From Eledone cirrhosa (taxonomy: Eukaryota): 64,000 bases of DNA. The translations under genes and the position numbers were made by a program. Of the stretch, positions 31,243-32,207 are shown piece by piece. The stretch spans positions 345,526,001 to 345,590,000 of the forward strand of contig OZ024740.1 of NCBI GenBank assembly GCA_964016885.1, written 5' to 3'. Each line of letters opens with the position of its first letter. The first letter of the stretch is position 1. Below the pieces are notes generated by a model. It made no database searches and was not told where the DNA came from. It saw only the letters and a program-made list of their open reading frames with translations.

Positions 31243-31852
31243 TGTATGTATGTATGTATGTATGTATGTATGTATGTATGTATGTATGTGTGTATGTATA
31301 TATGTATGTACATACATACATATATATGTTTATGGGAGTGAAAGGCCCCCACGTGTTGTCACAACACCTTTATAGGAGAGGGAAACTCTGAAAAAAAAAA
31401 CCCTGCAGCTTTGGAAACATCCGATGATGTTCACCAATTCTCCTTTTCGGGTAGTGTTTTCGATGCTCAGAGAGTGAGATTTTTCCCCACTTAAAAAACT
31501 TTCAAAGCACAGAGGTTTCTTGTTCAGGATATGTTGCAGGTTTGTGTGACTGGACGTAGCCTACAAGTGCACCAAACGCTATAATCTTCCAAGCAATTGA
31601 AATGCTCTTGGCAGAGTTTGCAGCCATCATATATTTCTGTATGTCTACGTGTTAGTGAGTATTTATGTGAAAACTTGGCGCGTATAGAGCGAAACCGCTA
31701 GGTAGTTTCGGACACTATAAAAATGGCACGAATATAACATTTTAGCCGTCCCGAAGACTGACATTACTTTCTGCATATGCTGCAATGAAAGGGAAAAGAG
31801 AAATGCCACACTCAAGCAACACACATGAAAGTCATTCAGACCAATTTATTAA

Positions 31853-31945
31853 ACATATTACAATCGTTTCTCTGGCGACCAGCTCGAGGGACGATCGATG
31901 TAATGATCGAACCTGACTCTGAAATCGCAAGATCCTCAGATACGT
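31853..31945 (-). ncRNA. Type I hammerhead with ~60-nt extended stem II, intact core
   Basis: acgtat-CTGAGGA-tcttgcga...tcgccaga-GAAAC-gatt-GTA-atatgt; left arm of palindrome ~31845-32100. Confidence 0.85.
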
Positions 31946-32000
31946 TTATATTCGACGAAGCAGAGTTACCATTTTGGAAACTCTGCTTCGTAGAATCGAG

Positions 32001-32093
32001 ACGTATCTGAGGATCTTGCGATTTCAGAGTCAGGTTCGATCATTACATCGATCGTGTCTGGAGCTGGTCGCCAGAAAAACGATTGTAATATGT
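32001..32093 (+). ncRNA. Mirror copy of the extended-stem-II hammerhead (G12 to A)
   Basis: acgtat-CTGAGGA...tcgccaga-AAAAC-gattGTA-atatgt. Confidence 0.75.
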
Positions 32094-32207
32094 CTAATAC
32101 ATTTTATTCGTCACAACACTGATTCTCCGTTTCTTAATATTTATATTTATATTTATATATTTATAATATTTATATTTATATTCATATTTATATTTATATA
32201 TATATAT

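Follow-up and report, generated by a model that had tools for sequence, protein, structure and literature searches.

Introduction

The closest described relatives of the repeat family treated here are Penelope-like elements (PLEs) of the Hydra clade, which encode a reverse transcriptase (RT) followed by a C-terminal GIY-YIG endonuclease, carry the motifs RW(R/K), DKT, CxCX5C, CxxC and CxH, are "generally <3 kb" long and end in a tail of 30-40 bp (Craig et al. 2021, PMC8557442). The octopus family Hydra-1_Obim is listed among them, and the accessible text of the same paper calls the role of hammerheads in PLEs unclear (PMC8557442). Inverted truncated copies and tails have been described for PLEs more than once (PMC8557442; PMC4209133). 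In the Anolis Poseidon element PAc, the tail is set by RT starting internally, uncleaved RNA serves as the principal template, proteins assist the hammerhead, and core mutants were without effect on insertion in vitro (Frangieh et al. 2024, PMC11167929). Of the core substitutions that matter below, U4C and A6C lower hammerhead activity (PMC3088659, PMC7151607) and U4C supports viroid infectivity (PMC3088659); the term 'A6U' does not occur in the accessible text of either paper. A helix II called long in the available part of PMC13725137 measures 6 bp, and the accessible text of a 2026 octopus repeat annotation (PMC13282606) does not contain the word 'hammerhead'.

Here we analyze a palindrome from the octopod Eledone cirrhosa, in a window of 64,000 nt (assembly GCA_964016885.1, contig OZ024740.1, positions 345,526,001 to 345,590,000). 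The palindrome very probably consists of two short Penelope-like terminal repeats joined 5' to 5', likely by one insertion event, each with a predicted hammerhead whose stem II is exceptionally long for such an element.

Results

A preliminary description of the window had reported a palindrome of ~250 bp at 31845..32100 with one ribozyme per strand, and a diverged homologue at 17083-17175. Both sequence features were recovered, the former spanning 31843-32103 as an inverted repeat with arms 90.4% identical over 261 nt, and the latter at 17080-17184, with 79% and 75% identity to the two palindrome arms. Because the arms differ by 10%, an assembly artefact was rejected. The left arm starts ~26 nt before stem I and is 3'-truncated after an AATAAA, which is inferred to be a poly(A) signal or a segment for a tertiary contact; the right arm begins ~31 nt ahead of stem I, reaches the proximal 3' end of the family and is followed by an AT-rich run. 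The coordinates are collected in Table 1. Beside the homologue, hereafter the 17083 copy, a ~300-nt repeat is clustered at 17190-18350, in both direct and inverted copies, and truncates it.

Table 1. Positions of the palindrome, its hammerheads and the related 17083 copy in the window
Feature	Position	Strand	Remark
Left arm	31843..31971	-	short terminal-repeat copy, subfamily A1
AATAAA, left arm	31845..31850	-	directly past stem I; common to subfamilies A, B and C
Left-arm type I hammerhead	31853..31945	-	intact core; from sequence and fold
Left-arm stem I	31945-31940/31858-31853	-	
Left-arm CUGAGGA	31939-31933	-	
Left-arm stem II	31932-31871	-	
Left-arm GAAA	31870-31867	-	
GGTTCGATC, left arm	31905..31913	-	forms the 5' strand in helices of stem II; B-box core with one mismatch
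Palindrome centre	31969..31977	.	5' ends of both arms meet
Right arm	31970..32136	+	short terminal-repeat copy
Right-arm decayed hammerhead	32001..32093	+	G12->A at 32076, plus two changes in stem II
GGTTCGATC, right arm	32033..32041	+	
17083 copy	17070..17185	+	sister subfamily B1; another repeat cuts off its downstream side
Inverted subfamily B1 tail	16972..17078	-	beside the 17083 copy; second divergent insertion

Each arm has the order stem I, CUGAGGA, a 62-nt insert, GAAA, a 2-bp near-palindromic helix III, GUA and stem I, a layout that supports, as modeled, a type I hammerhead architecture. The A15.1-U16.1 pair, an NUH site and three helices with stem I open are present in the family. 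The left arm differs from family copy L002 by 2 changes, its core is intact with G12A13A14 present, and its cut site is predicted between 31859 and 31858. The right arm differs from the same copy by 3 changes, among them that at G12, and its hammerhead is predicted to be inactive. The C3U4G5A6N7G8A9 core reads CTGAGGA in both arms, whereas the 17083 copy, with 9 changes from family copy L036, departs from it by A9->T at 17095. Thus, only the left arm among the three copies is an intact hammerhead, and the idea of one ribozyme per strand was not confirmed. A transcript running through the palindrome is predicted to form a single long hairpin of -201.5 kcal/mol that abolishes both hammerhead folds. 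Rfam hammerhead models gave 0 matches in the window at the gathering score, and at E<=10 in four loci no hammerhead was among the 150 matches listed of 169; those listed were of microRNA-type hairpin and low-complexity kinds only. A family pattern without the promoter-like motif found 24 matches in metagenomes, none of which resembled the family by BLAST, and these were treated as chance. A further divergent hammerhead-like pair, unrelated and with a short stem II and a TA-palindromic helix III, lies at ~18545-18780 and belongs to a family with 21 matches in the descriptor scan described below.

To examine the family, candidates were gathered from the 3.0-Gb genome, which is rich in (TA)n, with queries for subfamily A (a palindrome arm), subfamily B (the 17083 copy) and a third subfamily, C. 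The first look returned 2001, 1249 and 2015 candidates, respectively, of which 40 were scored per query, and these figures are not copy numbers. Walking upstream from hammerhead copies reached a GIY-YIG C-terminus. The endonuclease end was used to select 20 loci, and in 16 of them a same-strand hammerhead followed ~1.1-1.8 kb past the query. Among 37 loci picked by the RT, at least 21 had a hammerhead copy downstream on the same strand; upstream of the ORF, a direct copy was present in 9 and an inverted one in 13. The full-length order is hammerhead-ORF(RT, GIY-YIG)-3' UTR-hammerhead, with 4.4-4.9 kb between the two hammerheads in L194, L196 and L209; in full-length copies the tail runs on into the 5' UTR, and the ATG follows ~260 nt after stem I, that is ~170 nt after the cut site. 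The terminal repeat (pLTR) with its hammerhead, an inverted truncated copy, a tail and a (TA)n target are all present.

In the RT-picked loci a single ORF has the RT first and the C-terminal GIY-YIG second, and the copies examined are frameshifted. The ORF carries RMRWRAF, SDKT, YRDD, CxCX5C, CxxC and CxH. In eight scanned loci, RMRW[R/L/H]AF, with R/L/H replacing K, was found in 6, [S/P]DKT at the expected place in 5, CxCX5C in 7, CxxC in 5 and a C-terminal CRH in 4. No CCHH endonuclease motif was seen by eye in the unaligned translations. Pfam matched the endonuclease part to GIY-YIG at E 0.01, below the cut-off, and returned no match for the family's RT fragment. A linked related endonuclease was found in only 1 of 12 subfamily B loci. 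The Naiad clade was rejected because the endonuclease is C-terminal. Judged by these sequence features, the element is likely a PLE of the Hydra clade.

Several other repeats were seen in the window. Another Penelope-like element with RT and GIY-YIG (55283-60784, ORFs 56470-59608) has an inverted copy of ~100% identity and looks recent. Fragments of other Hydra-like RT/endonuclease ORFs lie at 37468-38439 (-), 52887-54516 (+) and 62881-63738 (-). Short inverted tail-like pieces of yet another repeat, similar to L061:8320-8430, sit between (TA)n runs at 1964-2250 and 9590-9850, and were probably made by the same insertion mechanism as the palindrome. A tandem array with a 71-nt period and a strong C-over-G skew fills 1-1390.

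Stem II was then examined as a structure. It takes up 62-63 nt between the core halves and is predicted to form ~21 bp in five segments, and the identical five-segment hairpin was folded in subfamilies A, B and C. The structured stem II of ~60 nt that had been proposed was borne out in family copies, in which the stem alone folded better than its shuffles (z -3.1 for A, -3.4 for B and -1.8 for C); the whole ~100-nt motifs in the window reached only z -1.4 to -1.9. Selection on structure had been argued from the helices CGA/TCG, CAG/CTG, AGG/CCT and CGATC/GATCG being kept between palindrome and homologue while the apical loop changed. The helices and the loop change are indeed there, but the window pair alone yields no covariation, because the named helices are identical in both sequences. 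It is across the subfamilies that compensatory stem II changes were found, for example AGG/CCT to AGA/TCT in subfamily C, and here the claim of selection held. In an alignment of 29 hand-picked rows (28 distinct) from seven subgroups, drawn from >200 copies, 93.5% of 800 cells were paired (84.5% in stem I, 95.5% in stem II), and both helix III pairs were invariant in 28/28 distinct rows. Two-sided change occurred in 9 of 29 pairs, 8 of these among the 21 pairs of stem II; the rows are related by descent, which inflates such counts, the structure was taken from folds of three family copies, and six of the nine covarying pairs are subfamily-level while three rest on 1-2 rows. The observed covariation was reached by 9 of 500 shuffles, slid controls gave at most 4, and RNAalifold recovered the stem II hairpin with 7 of 19 pairs covarying. 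Folds of stem I beyond 6-8 bp differed among subfamilies. Coding constraint on stem II was considered and rejected: the open frame shifts by a 2-nt indel between A and B, and the element's ATG comes only ~260 nt past stem I. The data support the view that the long stem II is selected as a structure, and the fold likely has a role in the element's RNA that goes beyond fast cleavage.

A motif in stem II, GGTTCGATC, had been called invariant and compared with a Pol III B box or a T-loop. The Pol III B box has the core consensus GWTCRANNC, and in the tRNA T-loop UUCRANY is unpaired in a loop closed by a stem. The motif here is one strand of a helix, with 8 of its 9 bases paired in the predicted fold, and ARAGORN found no tRNA, so that a T-loop does not fit. 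Nor is the motif invariant: GTTCGATC occurred in 82 of 150 distinct family copies and in 0 of 33 scored subfamily C copies (35 examined, 2 unmatched by the pattern). All 33 scored C copies carry GACAGATC in place of GGTTCGATC, with the AGG/CCT to AGA/TCT change in compensation. GWTCRANNC was matched exactly only by the B1 representative, with 1 mismatch in A1 and in both window arms. A search for an A box gave nothing within 1 mismatch in subfamilies A and B; the best match had 2 mismatches in 7 of 8 sequences, and C1 alone, which is without the B box, had 1 mismatch. T4 runs were seen at +118 to +127, near the proximal end, in the B, C and A2 representatives. The motif being base-paired and replaced with compensation in C, it lacks the conservation across the family on which the preliminary description had itself made the B box depend, and it is likely not a promoter.

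The boundaries of the short copies were also mapped. Their 3' ends fall at two fixed points, ~+143 and ~+240 from stem I and ~95 nt apart, adjoining (TA)n. Of 30 copies selected by a tail-only query, 20 had an inverted upstream partner, none extended beyond -40, and 28 spanned the cut site at +87; the remaining two began at +90 and +97, close to it. In hammerhead-selected sets, 5' boundaries at -20 to -40 were found in 16/28 copies of A, 8/29 of B and 15/29 of C. Partner spacing and truncation vary freely among loci. Two same-sense copies, which a dimeric hammerhead requires, occur only in the pLTR-ORF-pLTR form. Divergent pairs are the usual insertion product and not a functional ribozyme pair; the pair in the window is in decay and, as a pair, functionless.

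The catalytic core has drifted among the subfamilies. The A2, B2 and C2 cores read CCGACGA or CCGA(A/G)GA, and CTGACGA in A2 may be a CpG-decay form of CCGACGA. In subfamily C, the core CCGTCGA (U4C + A6U) was found in 32 of 35 copies; C3, G5, G8, A9, GAAA and the palindromic helix III are kept, and so are, through a compensating change, the four inner pairs of stem I, so that cleavage, slow or assisted, may plausibly persist. In an RT tree built from 35 rows, U4C groups were nested within both the A and B lineages; the tree is midpoint-rooted only, omits L192 and L220, and labels L190 from a neighboring insertion. Within L211/L217/L218 and within L212/L213 the loci are near one another and possibly segmental duplicates, and their short branches are therefore no sign of recent activity. 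A descriptor scan of the collected loci gave 248 distinct matches and, from these, 16 multi-copy families with spacers of 13 to 117 nt; the link of these families to PLE ORFs was checked in part. Helix III is palindromic in nearly all of them, and GTTCGATC occurs in the family of the window palindrome alone. Families with 83-117 nt between the core halves are represented by L100:1709-1840, whose insert folds at -33 kcal/mol, L062:6127, L016:2024 (-), L219 and L208 (hammerhead-like). U4C also appeared in an unrelated short-stem family, L113:8055 (- strand count) and 8 further copies, with CCGAAGA in 7 of 9.

Discussion

The palindrome itself is an ordinary Penelope-type insertion, and the family that it belongs to matters modestly. 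A mechanism consistent with the boundaries would run as follows. Pol II transcription would start near the 5' boundary, 20-40 nt before stem I; RT, as the accessible account of PAc suggests (PMC11167929), would start internally at one of the two 3' points on uncleaved RNA and run to the 5' end; and priming from both ends of a cut in TA-rich DNA would give divergent pairs. In master elements, stem II may be selected as an RNA structure, either a folding scaffold or a binding surface for the RT-endonuclease, serving a ribozyme that would be slow and dimer- or protein-assisted. The sharp 5' boundary of short copies would then record in the genome where transcripts start and that uncleaved RNA was copied. 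If transcribed, the many inverted pairs genome-wide would yield double-stranded RNA of 50-170 bp, possible substrates for ADAR or small-RNA pathways.

That a divergent pair is instead a selected unit, whether with a ribozyme on each strand or as a T-loop tertiary switch, is scarcely credible and already largely refuted: although the motif is recognizable in both arms and the left core is intact, the right arm carries G12A, the arms have diverged by 10%, spacing and truncation of partners differ freely from locus to locus, read-through RNA would be one long hairpin, and the motif is paired rather than looped. We also regard it as very unlikely that the short copies derive from a Pol III SINE-like RNA with a B box inside stem II, mobilized in trans by the Penelope enzyme. 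Such an origin would account for the perfect consensus match in B1, the position of the motif 60-75 nt past the 5' boundary, the T4 runs in B, C and A2, and the great excess of short over long copies. However, A1, and hence both window arms, has a mismatch to the core; subfamily C lacks the motif, yet equals the others in 5' boundary and abundance; A and B have no A box within 1 mismatch, and ARAGORN no tRNA match; long-tail copies reach ~+235, beyond the T runs; GTTCGATC is found in 0 of the 15 other multi-copy hammerhead families; and the sequence forms the 5' UTR of an element that encodes a protein.

It is unlikely, though less remote, that stem II has replaced catalysis, the derived subfamilies being non-cleaving and the motif a recognition or translation element only. 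The U4C + A6U core of most C copies, the nesting of U4C in both the A and B lineages, the lowered activity of U4C and A6C (PMC3088659) and the insertion of core mutants in vitro (PMC11167929), as far as the accessible texts of these papers go, would all agree with a loss of catalysis. Against it, C keeps C3, G5, G8, A9, GAAA, helix III and the inner stem I pairs, as expected under selection for slow cleavage, U4C supports viroid infectivity in the available account (PMC3088659), and the window arms belong to a canonical-core subfamily. We tentatively suggest another possibility, that the PLE hammerhead here is a scaffold: stem II would have been lengthened repeatedly, up to 117 nt, into a domain recognized by the RT-endonuclease or by the translation machinery, while lineages of thousands of copies traded core bases (U4C arising two or more times here and a further time in an unrelated family, A6U a single time) with the fold kept by compensation. 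If the scaffold reading is true, the family is a natural series for testing the purpose of PLE hammerheads. Abundant, closely related subfamilies that share one covarying fold but differ in core (canonical, U4C or U4C + A6U) would, on comparison, tell a requirement for cleavage apart from one for structure. Hammerheads with such a long stem II are missed by standard descriptors and by Rfam.

In the literature searched, mainly freely readable papers and thus no proof of absence, we found neither the Eledone family nor a PLE helix II of 20 bp described. Two features go beyond the searched papers, as far as their accessible parts extend: a stem II 2-5 times the published Hydra length, with inserts of up to 117 nt in other families, and abundant subfamilies that keep the fold with weakened cores (U4C, U4C + A6U).

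Much else is shared with described systems. With Hydra-clade PLEs, as accessible in PMC8557442, the family has in common the RT with C-terminal GIY-YIG and the protein motifs, (TA)n targets, the pLTR, the inverted 5'-truncated copy and the tail, and a hammerhead of type I whose helix III is palindromic; a similar helix III occurs in Penelope-2_NV, as does the GUA site. The Hydra-1_oBim hammerhead is short and different from that of the Eledone family. Hydra hammerheads in the available File S2 have ~12-27 nt between the core halves, as against 62-63 here, and U4C and A6U cores are absent from that file; the tail of 30-40 bp contrasts with ~95 nt between two 3' ends, and the usual length of <3 kb, typical rather than diagnostic, with 4.4-4.9 kb. 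The minimal hammerheads of metazoan PLEs (Cervera and de la Pena 2014, PMC4209133, in its accessible text) are likewise type I, with an unstable palindromic helix III predicted to need a dimer, one additional nucleotide following A9, dispersed copies in the thousands that stem from truncated PLEs, and opposite-strand pairs 100-700 bp apart already noted. Their helix II has 4-8 bp, whereas it has ~21 bp in five segments here, and their core variant, U3-A8, differs from those of the Eledone family. PAc shares two internal 3' end points, AT-rich targets and copies of uncleaved RNA, but its hammerhead overlaps the ORF start (PMC11167929, accessible part), whereas here it lies wholly in the 5' UTR, so that coding cannot explain the conservation of stem II. 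Non-LTR retrozymes (bioRxiv 10.64898/2026.07.22.740005, as available) are also non-coding PLE-derived copies with type I hammerheads, but form tandem arrays; in Eledone no tandem direct repeats of that kind were encountered, near neighbors are inverted, direct copies flank the ORF, and the dispersed single or divergent copies are colinear with the element's 5' UTR. A long insert, of ~50 nt between the core halves, is shared by two PLE-X1 elements of Selaginella, flagged as non-canonical in the available File S2 of PMC8557442; these are plant elements without endonuclease, with a stem of 4-9 bp and a large loop, whereas the Eledone insert forms a covarying helix of several segments.
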